A program made the position numbers and the translations under genes. A DNA stretch of 64,000 nt from Rhina ancylostomus (lineage: Eukaryota), in assembly GCA_030265395.1 (NCBI GenBank), contig JARFYF010000017.1:19758970-19822969 (forward strand). The letters are read 5' to 3'. How positions within the stretch are numbered: position 1 is the first letter of the stretch; each line of letters starts with the position of its first letter. A model generated the notes under the pieces. That model was not told where the DNA came from. It did no database searches and was given only the letters and a program-made list of their open reading frames with translations. Shown here in pieces: positions 3,245-56,869 of this stretch.

Positions 3245-3475
3245 ATTTTATTTACAGCATGGTAACAGGCCCTTGCGGCCCATCAAGTCCACGCCGCCCA
3301 TTTTAAACCCATGTTAACATGTTCTTTGGAATGTGGGAGGGAACCGGAGCTCCCGGATGAAACCCATGCAGACATGGGAGATTGTACAAACTCCTTACAG
3401 ACAGCGACGGGAATTGAACCCCGATTGCTGGCGCTGTAATAGCGTCACGCTAACTGCTATGCTACTATCCCGCCC
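3245..3475 (-). mobile_element. tRNA-derived V-SINE (HE1-like)
   Basis: Minus strand has box A-like TAGCATAGCAGTTAG and box B GGTTCAATTCC, then the V-domain (GGAGTTTGTAC...TGCATGGGTTTC...GCTCCGGTTCCCTCCCACATTCCAAAGA) and a CR1-like tail. Confidence 0.9.
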
Positions 3476-5026: not shown

Positions 5027-5103
5027 ACAAAAATCAGAAGACAGCGGATGCAGGAAATACGAACTAAAATCAGAAAATGCTGGAAATACTCAACAGGTCA
5101 GGT
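5027..5103 (+). repeat. Penelope-type terminal repeat fragment (common chondrichthyan repeat)
   Basis: GATGCAGGAAAT...AGAAAATGCTGGAAATACTCAACAGGTCAGG motif, recurring at about 10090, 11890 and 49340 in this window. Confidence 0.6.
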
Positions 5104-10086: not shown

Positions 10087-10285
10087 ATAAAAACAGAAAA
10101 TGCTGAAAACACTCAGCCGGTCAGCCAGGATCTGTGGAAAGAGAGACTATTAACATTTCAGTTTGAAGACCCTTCATCAGAATTGGGAAAGAGAAATAAA
10201 AATAGTTAGTTTTAAGCTGCAAAGAAAGTTTTGGGAGAGATGCGTAAAATGAAAAGTATATCTATGATTGGGTGAGGCTGGGGTT
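10087..10285 (+). repeat. Penelope-type terminal repeat fragment
   Basis: AAAACAGAAAATGCTGAAAACACTCAGCCGGTCAGCCAGGATCTGTGGAAAGAG..TTAACATTTCAG..ACCCTTCATCAGAATTGGGAAAG. Confidence 0.7.
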
Positions 10286-11884
10286 GCCATGGGAATGAAT
10301 TGTACAGATTGTCCATTGAAAGTTTTATGCTGTATACTAATTTTTTAAAAGTAATATCAGTGCACTGGTAGAGAGGATTTCTGTTTCCAGATATTGGTTG
10401 ATTTCTTACTTTAAACATACATAAATATTTTGTAAAATAATATGTCTAGAAACATACATACTTGTGTAACATGGGCAACAGAGAATTTCAAATTGCAGTG
10501 GAACTCTGGCAGGATATGTTTTATTTGTCCTGACAATTGAATATGATTTTAAACGTTTAAAAAAATGTAAATCACTGTATTTTGTTTTATATACATTTTT
10601 GAGATCAGATCAATTCAAGGAGAAGCTGCAACTTAAAAAAAAATGTAAATTTTGGATGTTCTGTGATGACATGTACTAATCTATGCTTTGTTGATCTTCA
10701 CACTGTCCAAGGAGAGAATGTCAAACAACAATGTCAGTAGCTTGGTATAAACATTGTCATCAGCTGATTCAACCATTACACAACAGTTAAAAGAGTTTAA
10801 AGCAGTCCCTGTTACTTTCCCCCTCTGCACTGCTTCCTGATTAAAGCTTTTTGGAAAATGAATTTTAATCAAGACCCTGACCTGTGCAGCTTTCAAGGCA
10901 GCACTCGCTAAAAATAGGGAAAACAAATAAGCAGTCTCTGCCCAAAGCGGCAACAAAATGATTCATTTCTCTGCTGTCAGCAAATCTGAATAAGTATGTG
11001 ACACTGGGCTCATTCCAACACTGCGCCTCTCACTGCTCTTCCCTGGACTGCTTTCTGTAGATTATAATTAAAAAGTTTCAAGTCTCTACATCTGGCCAGT
11101 AAACTGGCTTAGGTTCCCTGAATGGTGACAGTGACCTTTTCTGCAAACTTAGTTAGATATATAATCTGCACTGTTTTCCATTAACTAGAAACTTAAGGCA
11201 GAATCTGATTATTTTGGATTTTCCCCCTCTTTTTAATTGTTTTACAGCCATAACTGACATGCGGTGTGTTTTCATGCAACAGTTCCCATAAAGTGACATT
11301 TTATTTGGTGCCAGTTTTTATTAGGAACATACAGACTACTGCTGTTAATTAAAGATTGCTTAAATCAAAATTACTGCCTAATTCAATTTTTTTTCAGTTT
11401 CCTTAATGCGATCCTACAGCTAATAGCTCTGTGTTCCCGTTCCTAACAGGAATTAATCGATTCTTGTGCTTTAAGAACCTGCCGTGGTTTTCTGATCTAC
11501 CATCCTCTGGTAGATTGTTTCACACTGGTACTCATTACCAAACAAAAAAGTTGCTTGCATTTTCTATATTCTTTTGGCTTTCTTATATTTAAACTCTTTC
11601 CTTGCCTCTGTTCATTTGCCCAGAGTTTTTCTGGACTAAATCTGTTGTACCTTTGAAAATCGGCAGTCTTTTCCCCAGAGAGTGAAGTGCCAGAGTAAGC
11701 AATATTTCCAGGAAACTCAGTCTCTAAATGCCTGAATCTATCTTGCAATGTTCTTTTAATTCTCCAATAGAATCAATCTCATCCACCTGATGCATCTTAC
11801 AAAGGCCAGGTACAACTTCATAATCATATCCTTCGGTTTAGTTTGCCATCACGCTGTACTGTGCAATCTGATATTTTAGGTGGA

Positions 11885-11980
11885 GCAAAAAACTGCAGAT
11901 ACTGGAAATCCAAAGCAAAAACAGAAAATCCCAAAAGCATTCAGCAGGTCAGGCAGCATCCATGGGGAGAGAAATGACAA
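11885..11980 (+). repeat. Penelope-type terminal repeat fragment
   Basis: AAAAACTGCAGATACTGGAAATC..ACAGAAAAT..CATTCAGCAGGTCAGGCAGCATCCATGGGGAGAGAAA. Confidence 0.7.
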
Positions 11981-11999
11981 TTTACTTACAAATCTTTAT

Positions 12000-14214: not shown

Positions 14215-14648
14215 ATCAGAGATGAGAGGTTGGACAGACTTGGATTGTTTTCTCTGGAGCGTCAGAAGCTCAGGGATGACTGGATGGGAATATATAAAAT
14301 TATGAGAGGCATGGATAGGGTAGATTGGCAAAGTATTTTTCTCAGGGTGGAAATGTCAGATATTAAAGGGCGTGGGTTTAAGGTGAGATGGGGAATGTTT
14401 AAAGGAGATTAAGGCAAGATTTTTGTTTACACAGAGAGTGGTTGGTGCCTGGAACGTGCTGCCAGGGAGGCGGTAGAAGCAGATCCAATGACAATGTTTA
14501 AGAGGCATTTAGACAAGCGCATGGACAAGCAGGGAATAAAGGGATACAGATCATCTGCAGGCAGATGGGATTAGTTTAGATTAGAATCATGGTTGGCATA
14601 GACATGGTGAGCCGAAAGTCTGTTTCTGTGCTGCACTGTTCTATGTTA
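14215..14648 (+). mobile_element. CR1 LINE 3' end
   Basis: ERLDRLGLFSLERQKLRDD..IYKIMRGMDRVD..RGFKVR (ORF2 C-terminus), then the 3' UTR ending CTGTTTCTGTGCTGCACTGTTCTATGTT. Confidence 0.95.
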
Positions 14649-17600
14649 AGTAGGTTTCAGAACATTACATAGATTTACATATTCACTGTTGTACGAGTAC
14701 CTGCAATCTGGATCTTTGGGCTGTTCTCTTTTGCTATTTCATTTCTAAAGTCCTGACATGCTTCAATTATTTTTATTTCCTGGTTTTTCTTTTAATTTCC
14801 TGTCTGAATTTTTCATTGTGTTTTAACATAATCTTTTCACTCTTGTAGGTTTCATCTGTGTAGCCTTAATGAGCTTTTTTTCAGATTTTCTGTCCGAAGT
14901 CCTATTGCATTTTATTCCATTTATTTTGTTCATAACTCGTTATTCTTTGATACCTGCCTGATTTTAGCAATTTATAACAAAGAATTTTTAATTCTTAAAG
15001 CATATTTCTGACATTACCCCATCATCTCCAAAATACTAAACTGTTTACTAATCATAGTGGAGTTGAAAATGCATTATTAAATAGAAATAATAAATATATT
15101 AATGCATGTGATTAAAGTGTTTCCATCAGTTATTGTTTAAAAAGCAATATTCCCACTTTAATTTTGTTACTAATTTCATGCAGCATAATTTCAGTGGCAT
15201 CTTAGCCAAAGTACAGTGACTTGATGTTCCTATTCCCTTTCATCTGTTGGCTGTCTGCAGTACTAGGCCACTGGTTGTGTGGCCCTATGGCCAAGGTAAC
15301 CACTTGTAGCCATTTGGTTGGCAATGGTCTCAATTCCTTAGTTGTGCCACAATCATTGACCAGGAGGCTCCACTCCCAGCACCTTCCTGATGGTCATTGA
15401 CAATTCATGGTTCTCAAAAACTTGTTTCACTATCTCCAAACATCTACTCATCAATAACATGCAAATTTCAATAATGCCTGTAAATATAAAACATCTTTAA
15501 AAAGCATTTGAATTATTTAAAAAAATACAAAGAAATGAAAAAAAACACTTTGTTAAATGTTTTTAATTAACGCAAGAAATCCCATTCAAATGAAGGGGCC
15601 TGAGCTTGATGCACAACTGGCACAAAGTTCAGAGGCCAGATACAGAGAGCATCCAATGTCTGAGCTCTGTATGCTACAGAGTTGTCTCAGAGCAGATTCA
15701 AACGTCTGAAGTACTCTGACACATGCAACACAGCTAACTGATTAGTTTTCTATGGTTCTACCAGCAATACGATACAGATATATACGCTGTGGCATTTTAT
15801 TTACACCAAACTTTTGTGCCAGTTTTCCTGTTACCTCATTCCTCCTTTGTATTCAGTAACTGGAAAAACTGAAACCAGAATAATAGTCACATAAACAGTT
15901 TAATCTAGTGTAATTTGAGTTTGTGCAGAAGGCCACTGGTTCTCATCGATCTGATATGACTGGTATGGACCACTGAGTCGGCATTCCTGACATTAATAGT
16001 AGCATCAGTTCCAAAGTTCATGACTGTACTTCAGCATAAAGTTCTTCAGGTGAATGAGCTTGCTATAAAGATGCTTCATAAAGCAGGGATCAGCTGGCAG
16101 AAATATATTAGTGGAACAACATAGCTCCCAGATTAGTTTTGACTGCCTGAACAGGTTAGAAAGGAATTTTCCAGTATATGTTTTCCAACATTTTCCTATA
16201 ATTTTCCCTTTAGTAGGTTGGTGTTGCAGGAGTGGGTGGGTGGTTTAATCATTATGTTCCAGCCATTGTGAGGCATGGGACTAGCTTGCTGCTTTTTTGT
16301 GCCCTTTAGTTTTGTGAAAATACACATGTTTTCTATAAAGGACTTCTGACAGCGGTAACTGTTAATCAAATAGTGTTTATGTAAAGTTTGTTTTCTGTCT
16401 GTGTTGGATTTGATTCTTGAAGTCACCGCATCTCCACATTATCTTGCATTTTCTTACAACATAGGTGGTCATTCAGCCTGTTCTGAGCATTCCCATCATT
16501 TTCTAAATAAAAACTGTGTCCAAGCACCCATCCTGTTTTCCACATCCACTTGTTTTAATCCTTGCCCCTTTGATGTTATTTGCTGAATAACAAGCCAGAC
16601 TGCTGTTTTGCATTTTAGAAGAATGCTTAATAACATCGACCGTGTTATTAAAAATAGTACTCAAAATGCTTCTAATTTCTGCATTGCTGTACCTGAAAAT
16701 AAATTACAAATTTTCCCCCTACTTTAATTAAATGACTGTCAGTGTGTTGTTTTCTTCATCTCGCCCCCTGTACCTTCCCATTACCTCGCACAGATAAAGA
16801 ATTGCTATCTGTGGAATGTTAAGAAAGCTTCTGGGTAGCAAGGCTCATGAAATTTGTCACAAGATCTCATTTTCTTCATTGCTAGACGTGATGCTTATAA
16901 TTGATGTGGAGGCTGTTGTAATTTACTGGCCAGCCACAATTATCACTCACTCTCTGAGGTGATGTGACTGCAATGTAAATGCAGTGAAATAGAGGAGCTT
17001 TGCTGAAAATGTTGTTTTTGTGCGTGCATGTATAAGTGTTTGTTGATCAAAGGATAAATTCTGAATGAGCATAATGCTTAAAACCTTCAGTTCAATTTAT
17101 TCCTCAGTTGCCGTGAGAATGCCTCAACCTGCTGGTTAATACAGAGGAACCATTAGGTTTTCACCCAAAGCAGGCTATTTCATGAGATCTTTTTTTTTCC
17201 CTTTTTTAATTTACTGTATATGCAACAGCTCTAAAGATGGTGGCAGTGGAAATCACTGAGGCACGTTTGTGTTTGTTTGAGGTGACGGGAGACACTGCAG
17301 GAGCAGCAAATTTCATTATATGTTTAAAATTGAGTGTGACTTTAATAAAGCGCAAACAGGTTTTAGATATCCAGCACAGTACTAATATGAATGCAGGAAA
17401 AAAAGGGCTCAGTCGTCCATGCTATTATCTTTATAGCATAGGAAAACATGCTGCAGGCAATCAGCATGAAATTCTTAATTGCTTAGCCTACTTATGCTGT
17501 GCTCCAGGGACAAATCCAGCAAATAAAATTGCCAGTAGGACCCTTATGTTAGTGCTAGGTCCCTGCCGTATACAAATGATTATTTTTAACTACTGCTTTG

Positions 17601-25374: not shown

Positions 25375-27022
25375 GTTTGTATCATTTGTATTTACCGTGG
25401 AGAATAGTGAGTTCAGGGAAGATAGTGAGTTCAGGGAAGATAGTGAGTTCAGGGAAGAGAACAGTGATATTCATTATGAAGCAGGAGGTGTTTTTGGTCT
25501 TGAAGCAAATAACGGTGTAAAATTCCCAGGATCTTATGAGATGTATCCTAAGACATTGTGGGAAGCAAGGGAAGAGGTTGATGGGCGCTGGCGGAGACTT
25601 TGGAATCTTCATTAGCCACAGGTGAAGTACGGAAAGACGAGAGGATGGTAATGTTGTACCTTTATTTCAGAGGGCCTGTGAGGAAAAGTCAGGGAACTAC
25701 AGGCCAGTGAACCTTCCATCAGTGGTGGGAAAGTTACTGAATGGGATCCTGAGGGACAGGATTTATTTGCACTTGAAAAGGCAAAGATCGATTAGGGATA
25801 TTCGGCATGGCTTTGTTCATGGGAGATTGTGTCTCAAATTTGATCTGAGCTTTTTTGAGGAGATGATCAAGAGGATTGATGAGGGCAGTGTGGTAGATAT
25901 TGTCCACGTGGAATTTAGCAAGGCCTTTGATAAGGTCCCTCCTGGTAGGCTGGTCCAGAATGGGATCCAGGCAGAGAGAGCAAATTTAACACAAAATTGG
26001 TAGGAGGGAGAGGGTAGTAGTGGAGTGTCGCTTTTCAGATTGGAGACCTGTACCCAGTGGTGAACCACAGGGATCGGCACTAGGTCCTTTATTGTCATAT
26101 TTATATTAATGATTTGAAAGAGAATATAGGTGACATGATTAGTAAGTTTTCAGATGACTCCAAAATTGGTGGTATAGTGGACAGTGAAGAAGGTTGTCTA
26201 AGGTTACACCAGGATATTGATCAACTGGGAAAGTGGACAAAGGAATGTTTGATGGAATTTAACACCGACAAGTGTGAAGTGATGAATAGTGGGAAGTTAA
26301 ACCAGAGCAGGACATGCACTGTGAATGGCAGGGCCCTCGGGAATGTTATTGAACAGTGAGACCTTGGAATACAAGTACACAGTTCCCTGAAAGCAACAGC
26401 AAAGATAGACAGAGGGCTGAAGGAGACATATGATATGCTTCCCGTCATTGCTCAAAGCATTGAGTATAGGAGTTGTGACATTGTATTGCAGTTGTACAAA
26501 TCGTTGTTTAGACCACACTTAGAGTCTTGATGCCATGCTATAGGAGGTATGTGATTATGCCAGAGAGAGTGCAGAAAAGAGTCAAAGGAGTGCTGGTTGG
26601 ACTGGAGGCCTTGAGTTATAAGGGGAGATTGAATCGGCTAGGACAGCTTTCCCTGAAGCAAGGCTGAGGAGTGACCATAGAGAGGTGTAAATAGGGTAGA
26701 TGATTGCAATTTTTTCCCCAGGGTGGGGGAGTCTAAACCTAGAGTATATAGGTTTAAGGGGAAAGGAGAGAGACTTAAAGGGGATCTGAGGGACAATTAT
26801 TTTTTCACATAGATGGTAGTGGATATATGGAATGAGCTGCCAGAGGAAGTGGAAACAGTACAACTACAACATTTAAAAGACATTTGGATAGGTACATGGG
26901 CAGGAAAGGTTCAGAAGGATATGGGTCAAATGCAGGCCAATGGAATTAGTCTGGAGAGGCATCTTGGTTGAGTTGGGTCAGAGAGCCTGTTTCCAAGCTG
27001 TATAATTCTCTGAATCTATGAA
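25375..27022 (+). mobile_element. CR1 LINE, ORF2 reverse transcriptase through 3' UTR, multiply disrupted
   Basis: GNYRPVNLPSVVGKLL, RHGFVHGRLCL, VEFSKAFDKVP, PQGSALGP, SKFSDDSKIGG, FNTDKCEV and LYKSLFRPHLE, then a tail ending (ATTCTCTG/AATCTATG)n. Confidence 0.97.
25404..25458 (+). repeat. Perfect 18-bp tandem repeat x3 (ATAGTGAGTTCAGGGAAG)
   Basis: Units at 25404-25421, 25422-25439 and 25440-25457, inside the 5' end of the CR1. Confidence 0.95.
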
Positions 27023-30000
27023 TCTAGATTTACCTTAATTTCTGTCAACTTTAAAAATAAATGCGTGTATTCCTGCAAAAAGCTGCCACAAGAAAATGCC
27101 CAACTCTCCAATTATTTCAAATCACAAATGAGACATTTTGAGGAGCAATTCTCTTGTGTTCTAACTGTAATTCATAAGTGGAAAATCTGATCAGCTTGCA
27201 CTTAGCAAGAGTCCAGCCCCTCACTCAGCTCTCAACAATCAATATATGGCCACAGGTCTTGATCCCTTTTTTTTAAGCTTTGTTGACTTTGATTTACTGC
27301 AATGGTCATTGACACAATGGAAAATGATGACATTGCACCAATCACAACTGTGACTTCCCTGGTCCAACAAACTTCATCAACATTTTAGAAACGCTCATTC
27401 AATTATTATTGATCAAGCATTTATGGAACCAAATAATTATACACACTTACATCAGGGAAATAATTAAATGGGGAAACTTGTTATTCTAGAATACTTTAAG
27501 AACTGTAAAGCTCAAGTTTTGATGGTAAGATCATTTTGGTTTCATGCTGTATCAGCAAAATGGAGGTTGACCACTGCTTTTATGCATTGGACTATTAAGA
27601 GAAGAATCTATGAATTTACTCTCCTGACCACTACATAATATCTCCCACTGGAAAGTTCACATGAGTGGGCACTGCACAAATTTTTTAAAAAGAGTGAACT
27701 TTAATAGTTAAGTTCTCTAGTGTTAAATAACCTCTTGATCTTCACTCACACGTGAAGACTCACCACTTGAGCTAAGTAACAGAGCAAACGCAATTGTTAC
27801 TAAATTCTGCATCGTGCTGAGTTGTCATTGCAAATTCTGGAGCGCTGTGTTGCTGATCATAACTCGCCTTCTGATTATGTAGCAATGGTTACAGAGAAAT
27901 GTGTTGTTCCATTGGGTGAATGAAAAAAAGCTTGTTTGCAAGTTTCATTCTCTGAACAAACATTCCTCATGATCTAAAAATATTTTTATCACTTCAGAGA
28001 AAGGATAACTGAGAGAATCAGTGAAGAAATGACAAGTTTGACTTCCCAAATTTTTGGAGTTTAGCATTTAATTAGTGCGATATTTACCATTCTGCTCTTG
28101 GTGAGCAGGGATTGATCCCTTTTATCTAATTGGTATTAGAATAGCTTAATGTGCAATATCAGAACTGTATCAAATGCTCATTTTGATTGGTTTGCTTGTG
28201 TTTTAGCTGGCAATTATGATGTGCATTCAACAAAGTATTAAATATTTTTGTAGTTTCCTTTGGCCATTCAAAAGTGACACTCAAATAAATGTAATTACAT
28301 CACTGACTCCATTAACTTAAAGCATTTTAATCTTAGGAGTTTTTTTCTTTCCAATTCAATTTATTGTTATCTCTGGAAGTGTTTGTGGGTTACCACAAGT
28401 GTACAATGCTGAAAGATTCTTCCACAGGTGAAGCCTGGCAGAAAAATGGTGCTGCATAAGGTGCCATACAAGTTTCATTTAGCCAACAAGGAAGTGATTT
28501 TCTTGTGTCCAAAGTATGCAATGCATTGTACATGGGTATAGCAAATTTCAGCCTATTGCACAATTTTAGTCAGAAACTTCTGAGAATTACTTTGGAGCCA
28601 TTTTGGGGCAGCTTTGTCTCTCCAGATGGTGACTGATAGGAGTGAGTACTGCACATCTCTGAATGCTAGTGGGCATCATGCCATTGGAAGTGGGCACCCA
28701 GTACAACCACCCTATCCAAAGAATCCTGGGAGGCCTTGGCTGCCAGCTTAAAGACATCGGTGTCATCTGTGGAAAATTCTAGGGTTGGGTACAATGGCAC
28801 ATCGTAGCACTTTGGGAAGGGTGATCTCCTAACCCTTATACTGGGACAGGGCTTCCTCACCATCCCCTCCTATTATGATCTCCTGTGTCCATTTCTGAAA
28901 TGCATATGCTTGCCACATTATTGCACTCTGACGTCAGTCATGCATTGCATGTTGCTTGATGCCATTGCTCTGCACCCAGTAACAGCCTTATGTAAACATC
29001 AGAAGACTGCAATAGAATTTACCAGAGGTTGCTACATGCACAGAGGAATGACAGTCACTTAGGATAATTTGGAATTGAAATTCAGTCACATAGTACACAA
29101 AAACCATGTGTAGCTCAATAGTATTTCTAGGCCACCATCTTTCTGTTTCCCTTCTAAGTATCAGCTTCAGATAATAGTGCATTTTATTTCTACAAATACC
29201 TGATTATTGAAATGAACCTTAGCTCTTTAGGTATTAATATGCTGAACCTGAAAGTCCTAATTCTCAAATTCTAAGAGTAAACATTAAAACAGGAACCTGT
29301 CACAACTGGAAGCAGCAGGCTCACTATTTGAGATATGGCATTGTAAAGTAGAAATAAAAGATATTGTTGTGCCATTTAAGTAACATTAAGGTTCCATTAC
29401 AAGCATTGCAGCAGACCTGAATAGATTATTCTTGGCATCTCTAATTCACCTTCTGTAAGATTATCGAATGCAATAAAACAGCTGCTTTGGACAAGAATGC
29501 ATATTAGTAAGAAAGCTCGGCAGTGTATGCATTATTACTGCATTACTGTTGTGTCAGTCTACTTTGGAACATACAACTTATGTCAAGTAACCACCTAGAA
29601 AGTATGTAGAAGATCGTCCATAATTTAGAGCTTTTAGCATGGGAGGGTGGAAGAAGAAAGGTGCATCATCTTTGAGCATGCTGCTTGTGTGTATCAAATC
29701 AACACAGAGCAGGCAGGGTAATTGAGGGGACGCTGTTTTTTTTCATCATGTTTACTCGGCACCTTTGGTTTTGTGCCACTTACGCTTGTATGTCAGATCA
29801 CATGCGGGCAGTTGGTCATCCTTGGTTTATTGGTGATTTGCCTGCATGAAACCTTACGGAGGTCAATATTACACATGAGAAGTAAGTTTAATAAAATGTT
29901 CATTCTCCCAAACAAATGCTGTTGTTGTCAAGTTTGCTTTGCAGTTGTTTTTTTTCGTCCTCTGTTTTACAGCAGTTAGTTGTTTCACAGTCAACATTGA

Positions 30001-34460: not shown

Positions 34461-34716
34461 CTACCTCAATGCACTCTGTGCTAACCCAATGTCACTGCAC
34501 TGATCTGTATGATCGGTATGCAAGACAAGTTTTTCNNNNNNNNNNNNNNNNNNNNNNNNNNNNNNNNNNNNNNNNNNNNNNNNNNNNNNNNNNNNNNNNN
34601 NNNNNNNNNNNNNNNNNNNNNNNNNNNNNNNNNNNACCTGTATGATCGGTATGCAAGACAAGTTTTTCACTGTACTTCGGTACAAGTGACAATAATAAAC
34701 CAATACCAATACCAAT
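34461..34716 (+). mobile_element. Young LINE 3' terminus (Rex1/Babar-like) with (CCAATA)n tail; spans a gap
   Basis: TATGCAAGACAAGTTTTTCACTGTACTTCGGTACAAGTGACAATAATAAACCAATACCAATACCAAT. The family assignment is from memory of batoid repeats and is tentative. Confidence 0.6.
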
Positions 34717-38002: not shown

Positions 38003-38057
38003 TGAACTGGCCATAATTTCAGCCTTTAGTCTAGTGCATTTATCTGTCCCACTGAGG
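38003..38057 (+). repeat. Left arm of 55-bp long-range inverted repeat (partner 39448-39502)
   Basis: 46 of 55 positions are complementary to the partner, ungapped, by hand alignment. Confidence 0.92.
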
Positions 38058-39447: not shown

Positions 39448-39502
39448 CCTCACTAGGGTAGATAAATGCACCAGACTAAGGGCTGAAATTGCAGCCAGTT
39501 CA
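39448..39502 (-). repeat. Right arm of 55-bp long-range inverted repeat (partner 38003-38057)
   Basis: CCTCACTAGGGTAGATAAATGCACCAGACTAAGGGCTGAAATTGCAGCCAGTTCA versus the reverse complement of the left arm, CCTCAGTGGGACAGATAAATGCACTAGACTAAAGGCTGAAATTATGGCCAGTTCA. Confidence 0.92.
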
Positions 39503-41929
39503 GATTATTATTTTCCAGGGAAGTCTTTGTTGAATAGAGGAAGCTTGAATTCTTCCTCTGCTGAAATGATTATCAGTGGTGGGGGGAGGGAGAGAGTGGA
39601 AATGCAATTACTCAGATCCTTCCACCCCTCTGAAGCAAGACAGATTTAAGCACGTTGGCTCATTACTCCACTCTACTTCCTGTTAGCATCGGGCTTAAGC
39701 TATTTCACCTTTCTTAAATACCCTGTAGGTTCTTTGCTATTCTAGAAAAATGGCAGTTTCTGAACAAAAGAAAGGCCTTTTAAAATATATCTCTGAGAAA
39801 TATCCAAGTTAAATGAATAAGCAATAAAACTATACCTTCTACAGAAGTTAGTTCTGTAACTTATTACTTAGTATAATTCACTATTAAAACCAGCTTTAAG
39901 AAATGTAATTTGAAGTTATAATCACATTCTGAATTATAACATCCAATTTGACTGTTCATGGAAAAACATTGTGGTATTTCTGCTGTAAAAAGGAATCTCA
40001 CCGTGCATGTTACCTGTCTGCGATTAGCCAGACATTTGAGGGAAACTGACTGAATCTTCATTCTCCCAGTGTATATCCTCATTTCAATCCCTCAGTTACA
40101 CTGGTAGTTTTTTAATTGACTGAGAGGTGTCCAGAGCCATCTGCTTCCCTTTCTGATGATTTTCTTTTGGCAATTTGAATTGACATTTTTAAAAAAATTC
40201 TTGAGTAAAGTGCAGTAGGGTTTCCCTGCTAAGCACAGAATGTAATGTTAATTTTCTACGACTGAAGTTTAATCTACTTTCAGCTCCTCTTGCATACTGC
40301 TGCACAAAACAGAGACTTTGACGCATGGAATGATTTTCATTGGATGTTTTGATGTCACTAGGATACTGAAAAGCAAAATTCTAAGGTGCATATTCTTTGT
40401 GTCAGGTTTACACAATTAGAATATGCTTATTTTTGCGCATTGACCAGATGCACATGTATGACTGAGGTGAAAAATAACAAATGGTCAAATTACTGTCTCT
40501 CTTCAGTTCTTGGCTATAGTAATAGTTTAAACAAAGAAAGTGGTTTGCTTTTCAACCAGACTACTGACCCTAATCCATGTTATGAATAGCCTTTCTCTAT
40601 GTTTTAGGAAATCGAATTTTTTTCTGTGTGTCTGCTGATGTGTAATTTTAATATGAAAAGAGGAGCCACGTCACTTACTTATTTTGCTGTTAGTTATGGC
40701 TGAGGTTTACAAATGACCTTGGGGCAGCAAGCACTGGTCTTGCAGAATCATAACAAGGAGGTGTCTGTGCCTTTTCTGCTTGATGAATATTCCTACCACT
40801 TCAGGCATGCTGTTATTGTAGGAGATGGAAGGTTTGCAGAAGTGAAGTGCAGAATGCAATTAGCCAGGCTTGTTTTTTGCACTGTGACCCGGAATATATT
40901 CAGTCTTTCTAGACAGTAAGCATATAAGTTAACTTAAATAGCAATGGAAAAAATACATATACAGTTAGAAAAGAAGAGCTATATCTGACTTTTTAGGGTG
41001 TAGCACCTAATCTGTTCAGCAAATTGGTTAAGAGATGACCATTGTTTACCCTCAGCTGCTGGCTGTATAGTTTATTAGCTAGATGAAGGAGTTAAACATT
41101 TTTAGCAATAAAAATTGCTGTGTAACTGACAGATTTTAAAATTATTGAGAGAAATATGCTTCTGATTATTGGCTTTGGAGAAATGAAACTGAGGCACATA
41201 ATTATTCATTGTATTAAAACAGGTTATTTTACTTTTCAAAAAATAATAGTTGGGATTTTAATAACACATCCATATTTCACACTGCATCCAAGGTTATTTT
41301 GGTTGTTTGAAAGCCTTGTGCTTTTATAAGCTTAAGGAAAATAGAAGTGCACCTAAATTTAACATTTTGTAATTGGCCACAATTTTAAACACACTGAGGT
41401 CAGACTCCTGTGTGGGTAATTGTAATGATTTAGGGTAAAGCTAGCTAAATTACTGCATAAACTACTCGTTATAAAATAGTATATGGTAGGTGTGCTGCCA
41501 AGTTTAATTATCTTAAAAAATTTCAGTTTTGCCCCAATGCAACGTGTTAAGGGCAACCGACTCTGCATGAGCAGGAAATGCGTTAAGAGCTCTGCCATTT
41601 TCCAAGTAAGCAAATATGTTTGCACTCTCAATTTGATAATAGGTTGGCATCTGGAGTAGTGATGACTAAGTTTGTATGCATGCAGAATATACATGCACAT
41701 CCTTAGCTTCTCTCCCTTGTGATGTTTGCCATTTTCTGGTTTGAGATTGCTAACAAAAAAGTTTGTTCCTGTTTTTGGCAATCAAGTAAGAAGACGGCTC
41801 ACTTGGATCCCTTGGAGAAGTATTTAGCCTGCTTGGGGATCTGGAGGAATGTAAAAATCCTTGGAGGTTTCTTCATTAGAAAGGAGTATACATCCAACCC
41901 TGAAAATATCCAGTAACCCTGATGCCATT

Positions 41930-44040: not shown

Positions 44041-44319
44041 ATACTGTAATTACCTCCAAGTTAGCTGCGATTCATGTACAACATCTCCCAGGCCCTTTTT
44101 CATGTACAGATTTNNNNNNNNNNNNNNNNNNNNNNNNNNNNNNNNNNNNNNNNNNNNNNNNNNNNNNNNNNNNNNNNNNNNNNNNNNNNNNNNNNNNNNN
44201 NNNNNNNNNNNNNTACCTCCAAGTTAGCTGCGATTCATGTACAACCGCTCCCCGGCCCTTTTTCATGTACAGATTTTTTTAAACTGCACATTTATATTTA
44301 TCTCACTAATGTGAATGAG

Positions 44320-44490
44320 TTATAGTCATAGAATCATACAGCACAGAAACGGGCAGTTTGGTCAACACGTCCATGCTGACCAAGATGCCAATTTAAGCAA
44401 GTCCCATTTCCCATATCCCTCCAAACCTTTCCTATTCACATACCTGTTCGAATGTCTTTTAAATGTTGTTATTGAATACCCTCATTCTTT
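44320..44490 (-). mobile_element. CR1 3' terminus
   Basis: ATAGTCATAGAATCATACAGCACAGAAACGGGC..GTCCATGCTGACCAAGATGCC..CCCATATCCCTCCAAACCTTTCC..AATGTCTTTTAAATGTTG, the reverse complement of ends like 26870-27020. Confidence 0.9.
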
Positions 44491-46035: not shown

Positions 46036-47735
46036 GGTATTTTTCGATAAATAAATTCAAAAAGTATTAAATAGGTGTGGCTAAGATTGAGCTTCAAAAT
46101 CTATCTAAATTGAAAGGTAAAGGTAAACAGAGGGAGTTTAGAAGCCCTACATTTTTAATCATTTTTTTTCTATGTACAATATTGAAGAGAAAGGGGAACC
46201 ATTGACTTGTATTAAAATTTTTGAAGTAATGTGCATGGAAACTGCAGCGCTATATTGCTAAGTTTAGTACTTGGAGATGACCAAAGCACCAATCTCGTCC
46301 CATTTGGGGAAGGACCTGTAATGCTGAAGCATATCTCTTGGACAATTGATAAAGCAGCTGTGTTAACACCTATATCACAAGATCATATCATAGTTACTGA
46401 ACAATGAATGTGGGTAAATTGAAAACCATAAAAATTGAGTAACAGAGCTCTGTAGCTTAACTTTGTTTCCATTCTTGCGCTTTCCCTGGAAGTGTCTCAA
46501 GAATTCATAATCTGATGAAATTATTAAACATAAGCAATAAGTCATATAAAGCAGGAAAAGGGAGAGGATTGTCTGCTAAGATTTTGTCAATGATAGATGA
46601 TTACTAAATTCACCATCTCTACTCAACTTGGGCAAGAATATACTTGGGCAGTTGGGCTGTAACTTGAAAGTTAATTATTTTCTTTTTTCCATTTGATCCT
46701 CAAACATTGTACACCAACTGTTGGAAAGCAACGTTGAGATACAGGGACAGAACAACGAGAGGAAAGTGGCCATTATGCACTTGAAAGAAAATTATTAATT
46801 TTACCCCTTTCTGGAGTGGGGATGTTTATTTCCGTCTACTCTTAAACAGTGCTTCTTTGATATACTGTGGGTGCAAGTGACCTGACCTTTCATTTACCCT
46901 TCTAGAGGGGCACTTGGTAAGCTTAGAACAAGCTCAGATACTCAACCAGCTGGCTTTGAAAATACCATGAGCACTTCCCCAGAGGATTCCAGCCGAGTAG
47001 AAATTATACATCCCGCAGCCCCAAATTTTCTTCAGTTCTGAATTTCAGTTTTTGAATGCAAATGCTATTTTTATTTTATAAAATAAAGTCCATCTCAAGC
47101 AACACGATCAGATGAATAACAATAGTATTGTGTCATTATCCTTATCACCGAGCACTCTTCTTTGTACAAAATACGTCGCCATGGTGATGACAGCCCACTG
47201 CTTGTCCGTCACATCAAACATTTTATGCCATTACGTTAAAGTGAATTTTGCTATTGGGATTATTAAATGCTCCAGCATTTCAAGCATTCTTAAAATATAT
47301 ATAATGGATTTGCATGAAATTGTGTCCAGTTTGAATGCTGAGAACTGATTGGGAATAATTTGATGCACCTTCATGCAAGGTTCTTAATTTCGGTTTAAGT
47401 GCATTAGAGATGGGTGGATGGAAGGGTGGTGCTGGTGGAGGTGCAGAGGGAGAAATGCCCAGCAGTTGACAAATTTATTTAGGACTATTAAGGCATTTAA
47501 GAACTGAAATAAGGGTTAAAGGTGTGATCAAGTGGCAGGAGCAAGCACCATGTTCCTTTTATTATCAATTGTAAAAAAATCATAAAGAATGCATTTGTGG
47601 ATTAGCAAGCAGAATAACTCTCCTTATGTGTATTCAAATTGAAGGATCGAGTCTGTAGTATATGAGCCGGATTGTCACTGTTGTCCTTATGTGTCGAGTC
47701 TGTCTTCATTTTGGCAAAACTGTATACACAGCCAT

Positions 47736-48379
47736 CACATATTGTTTAATTAATACTCCAGTGTTCTTAATCTTAACCTTCTAATAACACATTCTCAAGT
47801 GCAAACCTCAATGCCCAACATCATTGAATAATCAATACAGTGAAATAGTGAATATGTTAAAGCAGACTGGAAGAGTGAAAAATAACAAATGCGGCAAATA
47901 CATTGCCTCTTAGTGAATGCCAGTATATGACTGGATTGAGCTGTAAACAGGCCATCCCTGGGTTATGAACACCTGACTTACGGACACCCCTACATACAAA
48001 TGAGCTTCCATATTATTATTAAATTCAGAAGTCCAAAGTATGTACATACGTTCATTCCTGCAAATGAGAGAATTAGTTTCCTCCCTCTCTCCACTTTTAG
48101 TAATTCCTCTAATCAGGCTTATGTGCTTTGATGCTGTTCATTATAATACTGTGGAGGTGTGGATGGATGGTTACCATATTGAGTGATTTTTATTTTGTGT
48201 GTGTTTTCCGACTTGGGGACAAAATTGACTTATGGACAACAGTAGAAATGGATTCTGTTTGTTACCTGAGGACAGCCTGTAATCAGAATCAGACCAATGC
48301 ATTAATACCATTATTATACAGTAGGTTACATTTTACAATGATCCAATGAGAAAACGGATCAGTTCCTAGTACTAACAGT
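47736..48379 (+). repeat. Left arm of ~300-bp long-range inverted repeat (47736-47947 + 48280-48379, interrupted by a MITE)
   Basis: Reverse complementary to 52129-52655. The best block, 47736-47854 vs 52535-52655, has 17 mismatches and one 2-nt gap over 121 columns (hand count). Confidence 0.93.
47948..48279. mobile_element. Tigger/pogo-type non-autonomous DNA transposon (MITE)
   Basis: TIRs CAGGCCATCCCTGGGTTA and TACCTGAGGACAGCCTG, a TA on the right flank, and the subterminal motif TGACTTAYGGACA near both ends. Removing it restores the inverted-repeat arm. Confidence 0.85.
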
Positions 48380-49334
48380 CCCAAGTGCAAACCTGTATTT
48401 AAACCAGCACCGATTAACAGTCTCTCTCAGGCCACAAAATGTGTGGCCGGTAGGAAAAAAAAGTTCTATTGATGTGACTAAGGTCAGACCTGCCATTGAA
48501 GCAAAGTAGCGGGGATTTAATCTCTGCCATGTTATACCTCACTAGAAGCTCCTGAAGCTGCCAAACAGAATCGCACTGTTCTCCAGGCCTACCATCCTTC
48601 AGCACAAAACTGTATTTAAAAATTACAAAGCATAATAAAAAAAACAATTTAAACATACTGTTTGATTCATTTATTATGTCTTTGGTCTTGATGCTGAAAT
48701 TAGAGCTAATGTAAGCTTTATTTTGGTGGTTACTGACAGTAAATCATAGGAGAAGCGGCGGGGAGAAGGAGAAAAAATAAGTGTTGATTACTTTTTGATC
48801 AAAGTAGCCCATGCAAGCACACAGCAAAAACATTTACAGTGACGTTTTCCCTTTTTCTTTTCACCCACAATTTCTAAATGGCCTGTTTTATCAATATGAC
48901 TAATCCTCCAACTATAAATTCACAAAGTACTCTATTTATTTGCAATGATTTTCTTTTTCTCTAAGTTGGATAATTTTCAAGTGACTTTATCAGGCATATT
49001 AGGAAATCTCAATGAACAAAAACAAGGATTTGAATGCATTTCGTGGAATTTTGTCAAATGACCTTATTAAATATGATGAGAGGTAAGTGTTTGCAGGTAT
49101 CACATGAATTGGCACATCTTCCATAGTCAATTTTAAGAGCAAGATATTTAATTGATTTGATATGCTGTTCACTTCGTCTGATTTCACGTTGCATCAGTTT
49201 CTAGCACTAGCATGCAACTTTGTGAGTAACAGAGGCTGCCAGTGAATTCCAGAAAGGACTGAGAGTGTTGACTACAATTCAGAAATTGTAAGTTCAAGTT
49301 AAATGAGTCATTTTCCAACTGATTCCTGCAAATG

Positions 49335-49445
49335 GGAAACAAAAACAGAAAATGTGGGGATAGCACAGCAGGTAGATGAACCAGTCTTTCACCCTCCAGA
49401 GATTTCCAGCTTTCTCAATTTCAGCTTTCCAGCATTAGTGGGTTT
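49335..49445. repeat. Penelope-type terminal fragments in inverted arrangement
   Basis: AAAAACAGAAAATGTGGGGATAGCACAGCAGGT, then the reverse-oriented GATTTCCAGCTTTCTC.ATTTCAGCTTTCCAGCAT. Confidence 0.5.
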
Positions 49446-51061
49446 TCTCTCCTCATGTATGGACAAGGCCAATCTGAAGCCAGGATTGCAAAGCTAAAAA
49501 TGAGAATGCCATAAACTGGAGTTCAAATTTCCTCATGTTAGCAAGGTCTTTCATGCATGTGGAATGTAAGCTGGGCCAGAGAATAAACAAGACACATCCA
49601 AATGTACTGAAGATGTGAAAATTGTGCTGAAAAGAAAAATGAGAAGTGCCTCAGCAGACCAGCGTAAATATTGAAAGATGAGTGTAATGGGAAGACGCTG
49701 GGCAGTCCTCATGGAGGAAGAGACATAGAACTAGGAGTCACCTGGGTCCTCTCTCAGAACACCAGAGAAACAACATTGTTTGTCTGTTTTTCACTGTAGA
49801 ATGTGCGGAGTTGCATGGAGGGGTGAATAATGGGGAAATGGGGGAACACCTTGATTTTTTTTAAATGGTAAAATGACATAAAAGTCTTGCTGCTCTTTAC
49901 CTACACAGAGTCCAGATAGGATTATTTGATATAAGAAAATTTGTGAATGTTCATTTTGAAAAGCACTTATGTGGACCTGCATTATATCACAGGAAACGGG
50001 TGTCCTGATTTAAGGCCACTGCCTTGCACAACACAAGCCTATAGCCTCGTGGTTTGCAAACAGCAGAAAGCCTTTGAAGAAAACCTGTCACTGTGATGCT
50101 GGCTAAAATGGTCAGGGTGCACATTTGCAGCCACAAAATTACAGCAAAGTTGATAGCATTTTGTCTAGGACTGTGAGGCAGATATTTCACATCTCTTCCT
50201 GTAGGCTATTTTCTGCACAATGAGCGTGAAACACTAGCCAAAGGCTGGCATCACTCAGCTACTTGAAGTGTGCTAAGGGCTGAGGACATTAACACTGTCA
50301 TGAGCTGCAATCAAATCATGTTGAAATATTTGCCAGTGGATTGGAAAATGCAATAGTACAGATATGGCAAGAGAAGAGGTAACAGGACACCTATTTTCCA
50401 TTATGATGGAGATATCAGCCCATTTTGAATATGTATAACCCAGAAAACATATTGATTTTTCATTTGGAATAAAAATCACCAACCTGAAACTGTCAGATCC
50501 CTTTGTTAATAGCTCATCCCCTGTAGATACAGTTCGCCACAAACCAGTTTTAATTGCAATGCATGCACTCAAACAAACAAGTAGCAAAAAAGGACAAGCT
50601 GTCCTCAAGAGTTTAGCTTTTGAAATCCCGTTTCCAAAATAAAACAATGGCACAGAATTTGCCACTGTCAAGACATCTCACAACATACCCACTGTTTTTT
50701 TTATCTTGTCATTCCATCTGAAGAATTTTAGTTGCAATTGTTGGAAGTGTGGTGAAGCTTACGACAATTGCCGATAATGGTGTGGTGAAGCTAACCAAGC
50801 AGGGTTTACTACCTCGTTGAGCCATGGGACCAAATGATTATCTCCTCCACAAGTGATTGTTATCATTGTTCCTTTCCCCATTTTTGACTGAGAGGAAAGA
50901 GGGTAAAACTAGACTGAATCTAGTTTTCTATAATTCCAGGCGGTAAAATAAAGCAAAGAGAGTATGGACTATTTAGAGAGAAAAATTATCAGAAAGATGA
51001 CAATTTTTAAAAATTGAAATTCGTGAGGTACAATGTACAATAGGATTGGGACTCCTATTTC

Positions 51062-51136
51062 CTGTTTTGCTGTTCAACTCCCCCACATAAACCCAGCTCT
51101 TCCAGGTTGATGTAGGAAAGTTGAACAGCAAAACAG
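51062..51136. other. 75-nt hairpin (perfect 18-bp outer stem, 14-bp imperfect inner stem, 11-nt loop)
   Basis: CTGTTTTGCTGTTCAACT (51062-51079) pairs exactly with AGTTGAACAGCAAAACAG (51119-51136). 51080-51093 pairs 10/14 with 51105-51118. Confidence 0.92.
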
Positions 51137-52128
51137 TAACATATTCAGTTTGTGAATAGGTCCTTGCATTGTTTAATAAAACTTTTATTTGCAGCAGTAT
51201 ATTTAATTTATAATAACAGAGAGGTTGAAGTCAAGATTCTGGTTTGCAGGTTTGATGGTGCAGTGGGTCAAATTGATCAGCACTGCTTCAGTTAACCAAG
51301 CACTCTCAATCTTGCCTCAAATTGCTGAATGACTTGCACACCAACATCAGCATCTGCAATAAACTTGCCTTTGTTTTCCCAGTACATTTTGTATGTTTAA
51401 TCATGGTCTCATTTGTCCACATAATAAATACCTAATGCTGAAGTATTCCAGGGATAGTAACACTTTCATTCCACTCACCAAAATAAAATTCCTGGTAATA
51501 TGGTTGTCACAGAATGATAGGTCTGTCATGATGTTTTTTATAAAATGATAGGGTGGAAATTATTGTGGCTGGTTTAGAACCAGAGGCTCATCTACTTGAT
51601 CATCACAACATCTGTGAGGCTTCAACACTTCAGTGGAAAGTTCTTGGGTTAAAATAATTAAAAGCTTCACTTAAGGAAGATGTCAAGATTCCCCTGGTGG
51701 ACTAATATGTGAAAGCTGTTGACCAGTACAGCACTAAAATATTCATTCTAAAAGGGTCATAATTTTGGCATGTGAAGTTAGCAAAGGTAGCATTTGGTGA
51801 GCTGCAGTTTGCTTCCACACCTTAGAAAGGGGAATAAGATGACCAGAACTCACCAACCTTGCTGATGGAGCTGTGATTCTCTCCGAGGTTAAACAACTCA
51901 CTAACACTAAGGGTCAGGAATGGCCTTCAGCATTCATAAAATTGCGGATCTTTCAGAGATTAAAAATGAATAGGGCCTGTTGTTATAGAGACCACTCGAC
52001 CCATTGGGTCTAACTTGGTTGATGATTCCAAAGTCTTATGATCAAAATCGAGGTAAAGTGTCTGGATAGGAATGTGGAACAAAGAATTTGATGTAGATTT
52101 GTGATCTTTCCATCTTCTTATCCTTTTA

Positions 52129-52655
52129 ATTTTAATAATGGGAGCATGATCCATTTACTCATTGGATCCTCACAAAATGTAACCTACTGCATAATAACAG
52201 CATTGGTGGATTGAAACCACATTCTGATTACACAGCTCACTCCAGTCACACCCCACTGCTTCAGTGACCCAGTTTTTAACCTGACCTCGGGTACTGCCTG
52301 TGTGGAATTTGCAAATTTTCCCTGTGACTATGTGGGATTCCCCCAGCTGCTCAGTTTTCCTTCCACATCCCAAAGGGTGAGAATAAGACTAATGGGACTG
52401 CTTTGACTTAGACCCAGTGAGCCAAGTGGCCTCCCTCTGTTTCATAAGGAAATGTAGCATATATATTACCACTCACTGGGGAACTGTGTTGTTGGTGCAT
52501 TTGTTATTTTTTGCTTTTTTATTCTGCTTTGATGTATTCAGTATTTCACTCTATTGACTCTTTAATGATATTAGGCATTGAGGTTTGTGCTTGAGAATAT
52601 GTTTCTGGAAGGTTAACATTTTAAGAATACTAGAGTATTAATAAAACAATATGTG
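52129..52655 (-). repeat. Right arm of ~300-bp long-range inverted repeat (52129-52249 + 52456-52655, interrupted by a V-SINE)
   Basis: For example, GATCCATTTACTCATTGGATCCTCACAAAATGTAACCTACTGCATAATAA is the reverse complement, with mismatches, of TTATTATACAGTAGGTTACATTTTACAATGATCCAATGAGAAAACGGATC at 48311-48360. Confidence 0.93.
52250..52455 (+). mobile_element. V-SINE (5'-truncated, degraded)
   Basis: CAGTGACCCAG..CCTGACCTCGGGTACTGCCTGTGTGGAATTTGCA..TCCCTGTGACTATGTGGGATTCCCC..TGCTCAGTTTTCCTTCCACATCCCAAAG (V-domain), plus a CR1-like tail GAGCCAAGTGGCCTCCCTCTG. Confidence 0.88.
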
Positions 52656-53494
52656 TACATTCTTGCCCATGCACATTTTGAGTTCCGCTTTTGCAGCAGG
52701 GAAACTTCTATCCCATTTATCTGGGCTGGATTTGAATGCAGTTGAAGAGATGAAAAGTTGATTTCTTGCTCACTCCAACATCAAGAGGACTTGAACCAAC
52801 TGTTTAAAATATTACCATCAGTTCTATTGCTTTTCTGGGATCCTCCTGTACAATTAAGCAAAACAATTAAACTGAGTTTGGCATCAACACAAGGTGGACA
52901 AGTGCATATCAGTGCAGAAGTGGCAGTATCATGAAGTCCATGATTCACACCGAAACCAGGGAGACGGGACCCTCAGCAGCATACTTATTTGCTATTTTGA
53001 GTTTGAATGTTGTGCAGGATAACTATTTGCTTTTAAACTGTTTTTAAGCTTTTTAATGAATATTTGCAGGCCTTTCATTATTCCTTTATATTGTCATTGA
53101 TGCACTGAGGTGTGAGTAGTTACCATTCAGTTTTTAGTTTGTCTTTTCAAAGTATTTTCTTGTTACCCTGGACTCCAGCAGAGGTAGTAAGCAACTAAGC
53201 TGGTCGGCAGCCGATCTGTTGTCGGGCATTTCCCAATGCAGACCAGATCAATAAAACCTATGCGGCAACGTACTGCTGTGACTGTGACACTAACTTCCCT
53301 CATCCTCTGCACACTTGCTTGAAATTGTGATTCAGCTGAAATTAAGAACTTTAGGAAATGGGGAGCTTGATCACTGAATCCTGCCACCCAATGGTGCTTG
53401 TTTTCAGAGCTCCAGAGAATGACCCCATCTGCAAGTGAGCAATACTGGAGTGCATCTCTTGCACAAATGCATTTGTTCCAAGATGAGGAATTTC

Positions 53495-54793: not shown

Positions 54794-56761
54794 TTTGCAT
54801 ATTGTCTTTAATAAGGACTTACATTAAAGCATTGAAGAAACTGTTCATTCTTTGGGAAGTGGAGGATTGTCATTGTTCTGGGGCCCCCAGTCACTGCTGT
54901 TTGTGATTAAGTTGATGTGTAAAGTTTTGCTGTTTGCTGGATTCGGCCCCTTCACAGCATTGGCACAAAGTGCTCATTCACATTTAGATTAGTCTAACAG
55001 CTCCAGGGGTCAGTCTAAGGTCAGACTTAGTAATGATGTAAGGAGAGGCATGTCTGGGATTCTTATTTTGAACTGAAACATGTACCAGGAACTATTGAGA
55101 AAGATGCACTGGCAAGTAAAACAATCCAGAGCTGTGGGTACAATCTTTCTGCTTGATGCCTTAACGGACTGTGGTCGTTGTCTTTAAAGTAACCTTCTCC
55201 TTCATGTCCTGCTTTATATGGTCCTGTTTACTAGGCCCAATGCAGCAGATTAGTGTTGTTGGGGTATTGTTTTTTTTTAAAAGAGGGAGGTTGCTGTGAT
55301 GGTAGATGGCATTCAAGCAGAATGCACAATTTTTGCAAGAAAATGTAGATGTGTTACAGCAGTAGGGAGATGTGTAGAGATGGAGAGGTGCACAAGATCA
55401 AAAAAAATCCTGGACTATGCATGAAAGAATCACAGCATGGAAGCCAGCACTCATTGTCTCTGAGCGCACTCCTGCCAGCGGTGCATGTCGTTTCTCATTT
55501 TATTACAATAAAAAGGCGCAAGGATTGTCACTTCAATAACCACGATGCAATTTCTTTTTTTATATAATTTTTTTTAAAAATTAGGAGATTACCCTTACTT
55601 TGAAACTACAATTAACTGCTAGTTAAAATCCACAAGTGGAGAAATGCCTTTTTAATGAATAGTTAATGGTTTGTTTCTTTTCGCAAAGAGATCTTAGTTA
55701 TTCTTGTCACAGTGTAATGAAATTGAACTGACTGACGGCAACTTGGGCCTCCAGGAATAATATCCCGTTTGTGGCTGAAGCACAGATATTTTACAGGCAT
55801 GAGCAAAAGATGAAATGCGGATGCTAACCGACCTTTGCCCTTCCTGAGTTACTTCATACAGTATTAGCGTTTGATGGTATTGGTATGTGAGGTACCTTAG
55901 CTTTCTTTGCAAACCTGATTTATTTTTTGCATCCTTTGATCTTTGTTTTTTTTAAAAAGTCCTGGGATTAAAAAAAGTTGTATTTTTTTAAAAAACTGCC
56001 ACAAAGTAGATTACATCGGTAAGAAAAGTCTTATTAAAAATCAATGTAGCACAGCAGGATAAGAGGTGGTAAAATATCTTTTCATATGATGGATTCCATC
56101 AGGAGGTAGATATCCAAGTCGCCACAGGGACTGCCTATTGGAATCCTACACTTGGACTGAGATTTTAATATGATTAATTGATGTGGTCCAAAATGGTGCA
56201 TGCAGAAAGCATTATAAGATTCTCTTTTTAAATCAGTTTATTTTTATTGTATCATGCCTGGTATCCAGACACCATGGTGAGGTATATTATTACCATGTGC
56301 ACAGGTTAGTGGGGGTGGTGGGGGTTGTCTCAGGGAACAGGTTGACTTTAAGCGTCTGCTTGCTTAGAGTGACACCTATAGGTCAAATATGGAAACAGGC
56401 AGACTCACAAACAATTGTATCCTGAACTATGCTTCCAAATTGAAAATCTTGAAGTATTCAGCATGATTTGGGCATATTTTATATCATCACCTTCTTCTGA
56501 GCATACTGTGTCTTTCTTAAGTGGCCTTAAATGTGACTTTGCCAGTAGACCAGCATACAATACAAATGAAAATTATGGTAAATTGACTATTTTGGATACA
56601 AGTCAATTAGGTTCTCCTTGCATTCCTCCCAGTAATGTTCTGAGTACATGTGTTCAGCTTGGAACCCTTTGTGGATGTGAGACATCCTATTCTGTGCTTT
56701 GTCTAGCTCATTGCTTTCTTTAGAAGCACATTATTCATTAACATTTTTCCTCTTCCCTCAG

Positions 56762-56869
56762 AAGAAAACAACGAAGATGTGGAAGGGCTTAATGAGTCCA
56801 CGCAGGAAGCAGAAGATTCTACCAAAGACAAAGACAGTGGGAGTGAGAAGGAACCCAGCAAAGAAACAG
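56762..56869 (+). CDS. Internal coding exon (108 nt, phase 1-1) of a long-intron gene; acidic low-complexity peptide xENNEDVEGLNESTQEAEDSTKDKDSGSEKEPSKET; tentatively MACROD2-like C-terminal tail
   Basis: Branch-like CATTAAC, strong tract TTTTTCCTCTTCCCTCAG, purine/GAA-rich exon body, donor CAG|GTAGAG, and length divisible by 3. Gene identity rests only on resemblance to the DDNNEEEEDVE segment following the macro domain in human MACROD2. Confidence 0.8.

Follow-up and report, generated by a model that had tools for sequence, protein, structure and literature searches.

What kind of event leaves two long, similar stretches of DNA facing each other inside an intron, and does anything keep them alike today? 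The question is raised by a locus in a 64,000-nt stretch of the Rhina ancylostomus genome (assembly GCA_030265395.1, contig JARFYF010000017.1, positions 19,758,970–19,822,969, forward strand). This stretch, here called the window and numbered from its first letter, consists of non-coding DNA with 37–38% GC and contains nine assembly gaps. A first-pass annotation had described at this locus a pair of inverted arms, each split by a different transposon. Our analyses indicate that the arm pair is in all probability a neutrally decaying fossil. With regard to its origin, we tentatively favor (at a rough probability of 0.4) a dead, non-autonomous cut-and-paste DNA transposon of ~4.4 kb, in which terminal inverted repeats (TIRs) of ~330 bp surround non-coding filler, in a long intron. 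The weights that we attach to this and the other readings are a matter of judgement and not a computed posterior. The parts of the two arms, as delimited by alignment and BLAST, are as follows:

47713–47945, plus strand: left arm, outer part, 233 nt
48280–48375, plus strand: left arm, inner part, 96 nt
52132–52248, minus strand: right arm, inner part, 117 nt
52460–52667, minus strand: right arm, outer part, 208 nt

Self-BLASTN of the window returned 10 off-diagonal matches with E < 1e-4, and the strongest of them connects the outer parts of the two arms on opposite strands (47736–47892 vs. 52655–52497; 159 columns, 82.4% identity, E 1e-38). The pair was likewise recovered with find_repeats. 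A second opposite-strand block covers the inner parts (48278–48375 vs. 52232–52132; 101 columns, 76.2%, E 1e-11), and in the alignment the two blocks are joined by a 25-column piece (47928–47950 vs. 52248–52224). With both nested insertions cut out, arms of 329 and 325 nt were compared over an alignment of 338 columns. Identical bases were found in 255 of the 316 ungapped columns (80.7%), while the differences comprised 41 transitions, 20 transversions and 7 indel events, corresponding to a Kimura two-parameter distance of 0.23. This alignment scored 338. In 356 comparisons of real sequence, in which the left arm was set against tiles from elsewhere in the window, no score exceeded 53. The annotated pair is thus real, as well as co-linear, inverted and sharp-ended, and the ~84% identity given for its best 121-column block was reproduced (102 matches, 84.3%). 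The location of the pair also stood, but its limits had to be redrawn: the outer limits move out to 47713 and 52667, past an 11-nt indel (47725–47735 of the left arm has no counterpart in the right arm), and the inner ends lie at 48375 and 52132, not at 48379 and 52129. An assembly artefact was rejected as the cause of the pair, because no run of N occurs between 44214 and 59188 and the 80% identity is far below the 95–100% of the window's gap-overlap duplicates.

The two-arm profile used with nhmmer gave no third copy in the window (next-best E 0.21 at 40466–40513), as the first reading had also found. The best non-self similarity to the left arm, an exact A-rich match of 17 nt at 40467–40483, is too little for a third copy. 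We rejected an inward extension of the arms through an inverted 11-mer close to the inner diagonal (48516/51954), as 169 of 188 real-sequence nulls score as well. An outward extension through a 41-nt match (47017/53367) was likewise not accepted; 12 global tests of the sequence between it and the arms gave z of −0.6 to +0.8, showing no alignment. The match itself (47017–47057 vs. 53330–53367) is a weak inverted similarity near the diagonal of the arms, ~660 nt outside each of them, and is probably due to chance; its on-diagonal score, considered post hoc, was reached by 1 of 300 real-sequence nulls.

Two insertions, one in each arm, set the relative order of events:

47948–48279, no strand assigned: miniature inverted-repeat transposable element (MITE), 332 nt, in the left arm, with CAGG...CCTG ends, TA on the right and AA on the left
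52249–52457, plus strand: short interspersed element (SINE) fragment, 209 nt, in the right arm, with a 2-nt CA end repeat

By its signature, the left-arm MITE is putatively of Tc1/mariner-Tigger type. Sixteen of its 24 terminal bases are inverted-identical, the AA on its left may be a mutated copy of the TA, and no further copy was found within the 64-kb window. Short TIRs and a TA duplication are MITE features, and TIRs of ~24 bp are given for the Tc1/mariner type (PMC6887750). The right-arm SINE is related to a second copy in the window at 3287–3407 (E 8e-7). V-SINEs carry a conserved V domain and a tRNA-derived head; ARAGORN detected no tRNA, and we presume the fragment to be V-SINE-like. 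It retains 1 CpG vs. 12.3 expected, compared with 12 vs. 15.6 for the second copy. Because so few of its expected CpGs remain, this SINE is old and would probably have entered not long after the arms were formed. Both arms continue in register on either side of their insertion, and a short end repeat of its own bounds each inserted element; therefore the pair is older than both, as had been proposed. On the arm alignment the two insertion points are 16–20 nt apart, in line with the earlier estimate of ~20 nt. Since two independent insertions would fall this close together in a 329-nt arm in 10–12% of cases, whether or not the MITE is confined to TA sites, their nearness requires no special cause.

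Of the origins offered by the first-pass annotation, two imply that something still keeps the arms alike or able to pair. One was a selected long-range pre-mRNA stem acting on a downstream exon, in which the insertions are tolerated as opposed bulges; a putative exon (56762–56869) does lie ~4 kb downstream of the arms. The other was an inverted micro-duplication whose copies gene conversion keeps similar; we considered it in the form of a much older duplication, with recurrent conversion holding the identity at 80%. The arms can indeed pair: a cofold with both insertions in place gave 261 inter-arm pairs and −453 kcal/mol. This capacity is uninformative, as any 80%-identical inverted repeat would pair equally well. 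G-U-compatible transitions were divided evenly between the plus (21) and minus (20) strands (p 1.0, 95% CI 0.35–0.67); an initial count with rough arm boundaries had been 21 vs. 18. The duplex energy was −325 kcal/mol for the plus strand and −322 kcal/mol for the minus strand, compared with −325 ± 10 for a null in which the bases of mismatched columns were exchanged at random between the arms (300 swaps). The plus-strand duplex fell at the 48th percentile of this null, and 48% of the swaps folded equally well or better. These strand tests cover both directions, the transcribed strand being taken from the one putative exon. Mismatches were evenly spread along the arms: against 5000 permutations, neither adjacency nor window variance, which fell at the null mean, stood out, and the longest identical run was 16 columns vs. 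21 expected. Neither a homogenised (converted) tract nor a conserved core was found in the arm alignment. TG/CA doublets, as are left when one CpG decays differently in the two arms, account for 5 of the 8 adjacent double transitions, and 2 CpGs remain on one side. Because the G-U split is even, the energy mid-null and the mismatches uniform, and because the arms carry indels and have lost CpG independently, their divergence resembles that of unselected DNA and argues against both a selected RNA stem and ongoing gene conversion.

Further results bear on each of these two proposals. No Rfam match reached the gathering score in the 64 kb, and the 6 sub-threshold matches in 47500–52900 are generic hairpins, 5 of them on a palindrome at 51059–51139. 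As the chance of 10–12% shows, the closeness of the insertions does not call for opposed bulges either. The nearest known case of unselected pairing is that of inverted human Alus acting as passive ADAR substrates, in which editing drops with distance (PMC526178) and editability decays with a length scale of 800 bp (PMC4066801). Like such Alus, the arms measure ~300 nt, are ~80% identical, lie in one intron and could fold back without selection. Unlike them, by our tests they are not SINEs, they are known from genomic sequence only, and their 3.76-kb spacing is at or beyond the cut-offs of 2000–3500 bp quoted in these two papers. Carried over from human to cartilaginous fish, an extrapolation in itself, the Alu decay law at 3.76 kb gives an editability of ~0.03 percentage points above background. 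We thus regard the selected stem as very unlikely. Still less probable is that arms which arose from mobile DNA or as a rearrangement scar were later recruited, in rays and sharks, to form a conserved long-range pre-mRNA duplex of 330 bp that would loop out 3.8 kb and tune splicing or editing near the 108-nt exon. Here selection would act on overall pairing, not on single base pairs, and the insertions would have survived only as facing bulges, and our single-genome tests show no sign of this. Only the RNA-stem case, unlikely as it is, would surprise a specialist. For gene conversion, the 41-nt inverted match ~660 nt outwards on nearly the same diagonal (1 of 300 nulls, post hoc) could be taken as a trace of a longer duplication, but the flanks between it and the arms fail to align, as does the interior, and each arm retains its own insertion as well as its own CpG decay. 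We consider this proposal, too, to be highly improbable. A neutral relic is the conclusion common to the three readings that we keep in play (a transposon, a micro-inversion and two separate insertions), all of which are of established kinds. As judged from the sequence, the arm pair would appear to have no present function.

The leading candidate among these three is the first one offered by the annotation, the long TIRs of an old DNA element. Cut-and-paste DNA transposons are recognized by their TIRs, and here ~330-bp inverted arms agree in 255 of 316 columns. Under this reading, a ~4.4-kb non-autonomous element would have inserted in a long intron, its TIRs being identical at that time and presumably serving as the ends bound by a transposase. 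Afterwards, as the alignment shows, the MITE entered one arm and the SINE the other, and each arm has drifted by ~0.11 substitutions per site, with a pattern of CpG loss that suggests methylation-type decay. A transposon accounts for the geometry, for arms resembling a transposable element (TE) and for the end motifs; it requires an eroded target-site duplication (TSD) and host-like filler.

The resemblance of the arms to a TE is indicated by two measures. In simulations with a CpG rate calibrated to match the window, at least 5 TG/CA doublets arose with a probability of 0.06 from a host-like ancestor and of 0.36 from a CpG-undepleted, TE-like one. The observed/expected ratio of TpA was 0.91 and 0.84 in the two arms (8 and 24 of 171 tiles were as high), vs. 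0.61 in the interior. By CpG doublets and TpA, we therefore lean toward TE-like arms. As to the ends, an alternative boundary at 47727/52655 reads TA-CAC...GTG-TA, with the TA pair at 47725–47726 and 52656–52657. This boundary requires a 9-nt indel at the tip, and TACAC is present in 39 of 2102 random 30-nt tiles. A short direct copy of arm sequence is also found next to the left inner junction:

48382–48394, plus strand: exact direct copy of 47796–47808, 13 nt, just inside the left inner junction

A copy of this length was reached by 1 of 1022 other 60-nt tiles, an observation made post hoc. It overlaps an 11-nt motif that occurs only at 47715, 48388 and 48605 (3 vs. 0.20 expected, also post hoc), in all three cases at most 900 nt from the left end; a looser form of the left-end motif was not enriched (19 matches vs. 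16.4 expected). The copy and the motif fit equally well to subterminal repeats of a transposon and to a templated rearrangement junction. We also counted in favor of a transposon the presence of a second inverted pair in the same intron (see below).

Several results weigh against a transposon, some of which concern the sequence between the arms:

48376–52131, no strand assigned: interior, 3756 nt, non-coding as judged from negative Pfam searches, composition and skews

No TSD is present at the outermost aligned ends (47713/52667). The best direct repeat nearby is 7 nt long, with its copies 6 nt out of register; one as good is found for 5% of 300 random end pairs. At the alternative boundary, the 10 bases beyond the TA are inverted-identical at 8 positions, which was seen at 8 of 4287 TA sites; because this is so rare, these bases probably belong to the arms. 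When surviving CpGs are also counted, the likelihood ratio from CpG falls to ~1.5 at the calibrated rate, and in an order-3 composition test the arms are at most weakly distinct from host DNA (12th and 72nd percentile). A Pfam search of 116 open reading frame fragments and six read-through frames of the interior revealed no transposase, reverse transcriptase or recombinase domain. The power of this search is limited: among the decayed long interspersed element (LINE) fragments of the window, which served as controls, one gave RVT_1 (E 1e-4) in 2 of 3 frames and a shorter piece in 0 of 3. A PDB sequence search with the six interior frames (best E 0.18) carries no weight, since the LINE control frame also missed its reverse transcriptase. 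In dinucleotide profile the interior equals the window and is more host-like than 14 of 14 comparison windows. The LINE pieces were less host-like than the interior in order-3 composition, though within the spread. As a test for a foreign body, the CpG content of the interior depends on the rate assumed, a value no higher than the observed one arising in 0%, 5% or 95% of simulations. For dating the interior by its nested repeats, alignable columns were too few and the global alignment was poor. The long-TIR proposal of the annotation thus leads but is unproven, with neither a convincing TSD nor a coding remnant.

A micro-inversion, which was absent from the options of the annotation, fits about as well and is a close rival. 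In this case staggered breaks or a replication template switch would have flipped ~3.8 kb of old intron and copied ~330 bp in inverted orientation to the other breakpoint, leaving the arms as rearrangement scars in ordinary host DNA. Such an event would leave no TSD, no coding remnant and a host-like interior; the inverted-duplication geometry and the lack of another arm copy within the window fit as well, and the 13-nt copy just inside the left arm looks like a junction insert made by templating. In Drosophila, inverted duplications borne by staggered-break inversions have a median length of 321 bp (range 46 bp–1.9 kb; Ranz et al., 2007, PMC1885836), which matches the arms. Hominid inversions have been explained by the same mechanism (PMC2817401), and in humans non-homologous, template-switch routes are a frequent source of small inversions (PMC6748972). 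The likeness to the Drosophila and hominid cases extends to a single inverted pair of ~330 bp, non-repetitive in appearance, with substitutions and small indels and no TSD. Those inversions, however, are large and were proven by outgroup orientation, whereas here we have 3.8 kb, a single genome and a mixed skew signal. On the one hand, the T-over-A skew of the interior is reversed (−0.039, where the mean is +0.036; 17 of 1031 overlapping windows have a value this low), and for k = 1–4 none of the 15 k-mer strand scores was lower than that of the interior. On the other hand, its G-over-C skew (+0.048) has the host direction, and T-over-A is slightly negative also at 45–47 kb and past the exon. 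Flipping the interior gives no better fit, because the summed skew is low in either orientation: the observed value was reached by 91 of 1031 windows as low and the flipped value by 43 of 1031. The CpG doublets and high TpA also lean to TE-like arms. We regard a micro-inversion as a possible origin, close behind the transposon.

TE-like arms around a host-like interior, both of which we observed, are also predicted if an unrecognised short dispersed repeat inserted twice, or made a local hop, so that two copies face each other around native intron. That the repeat is unrecognised says little, as it was judged without a repeat library. Yet no third copy occurs in the other 59 kb, where other families have 2–5 scattered copies. 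The arms carry no TIRs of their own (46 and 81 of 300 shuffles reached their inverted self-scores), no TSD is evident by eye around either single arm, and the best match to an RNA polymerase III B box is an unconvincing 9 of 11 in a weak test, in which a real SINE fragment scored 8. Two separate insertions therefore seem to us an unlikely origin.

If the locus is a transposon fossil, its relatives may be sought among known groups. Elements of the CMCT group (EnSpm/CACTA, Mirage, Chapaev, Transib, ESTA) have 5′-CA..TG-3′ ends and TSDs of 2–5 bp (PMC12730594). The locus resembles them in its TIRs around non-coding DNA, in one possible boundary, which would read CAC..GTG with TA on both sides, and in a short motif repeated near one end. 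It differs in having no transposase remnant, so that the DDE transposase with C(2)C and H(3–4)H motifs is not encountered here. Moreover, the inverted similarity runs ~10 nt past the TA, which makes a TSD doubtful, and the TA-TSD lineage described in that source is fungal.

DIRS-type retroelements, like the locus, are 4–5 kb long in all and have termini of a few hundred bp in inverted orientation. They encode reverse transcriptase, RNase H and tyrosine recombinase and contain an internal complementary region matching the outer termini. We rejected a DIRS-like element, as none of the three domains and no significant internal complementary region was found. The four alignments made for this region were matched or beaten by 17, 2, 77 and 26 of 200 shuffles, and the one matched by 2 is gappy, A-rich and away from the terminus.

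Old repeats are described as difficult to classify (PMC5753468). Our narrow search, with partial coverage of the literature, found no matching paper on elements with long TIRs, whether in sharks, in chondrichthyans or in vertebrates. A transposon fossil would add one uncatalogued long-TIR family to a cartilaginous-fish repeat library, while an inversion scar would provide a dated, kilobase-scale staggered-break inversion in a vertebrate and a usable phylogenetic marker.

The interior contains a smaller structure:

51059–51139, no strand assigned: palindrome, 81 nt, with an 18-bp perfect stem and TA flanks

It is the strongest local palindrome in the window, with small hairpins on either side, and is probably a separate, younger mini-MITE. 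Folded as RNA, its minus strand gives a stem of ~35 bp that includes G-U pairs and a single mismatch (−52 kcal/mol, z −11.7), vs. −38 kcal/mol for the plus strand; an antisense hairpin RNA would be a less probable reading. Weak, degenerate palindromes were seen at 49396–49519, 49975–50103 and 56065–56172 (tiling E 0.002–0.02), and hairpins are not significantly enriched in the interior (p 0.15–0.53 at 4 thresholds). A short dispersed repeat occurs in four same-strand copies (5033–5105, 10058–10160, 11882–11995 and 49320–49373), the last of which lies within the interior; these may be Penelope-like ends. A match of 49215–49340 to 15295–15424 (E 0.018, one of ~40 tiles) was judged unconvincing.

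Downstream of the arms we noted one candidate for a coding segment:

56762–56869, plus strand: putative internal exon, 108 nt, phase 1-1, with AG/GT ends and an open frame

It is the only clear exon in the 64 kb, lies 4.1 kb downstream of the arms and would encode an acidic peptide of 36 residues, for which no protein match was found. The peptide may resemble the acidic tail of MACROD2. A motif search for a preceding exon gave nothing convincing.

The second inverted pair in the same intron is unrelated to the first and consists of 55-nt arms (38003–38057 and 39448–39502) 1.39 kb apart. Its arms are identical at 46 of 55 positions, 8 of the 9 mismatches are transitions, and a 53-N gap lies between them. 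The window has no further copy of these arms; neither a clear TSD nor a TE domain was found, and the interior of this pair is host-like. Direct repeats across 100-N gaps at 34505–34668 (31 nt, 100%) and 44051–44276 (63 nt, 95%) are scaffold overlap artefacts. Decayed LINE fragments, which we presume to be of CR1 type, occupy 25500–27100, 14230–14650, 3590–3990 and 44320–44480, the largest being the one that gives RVT_1. Just upstream of this fragment, a perfect 18-nt tandem repeat is present in 3.1 copies at 25404–25458.

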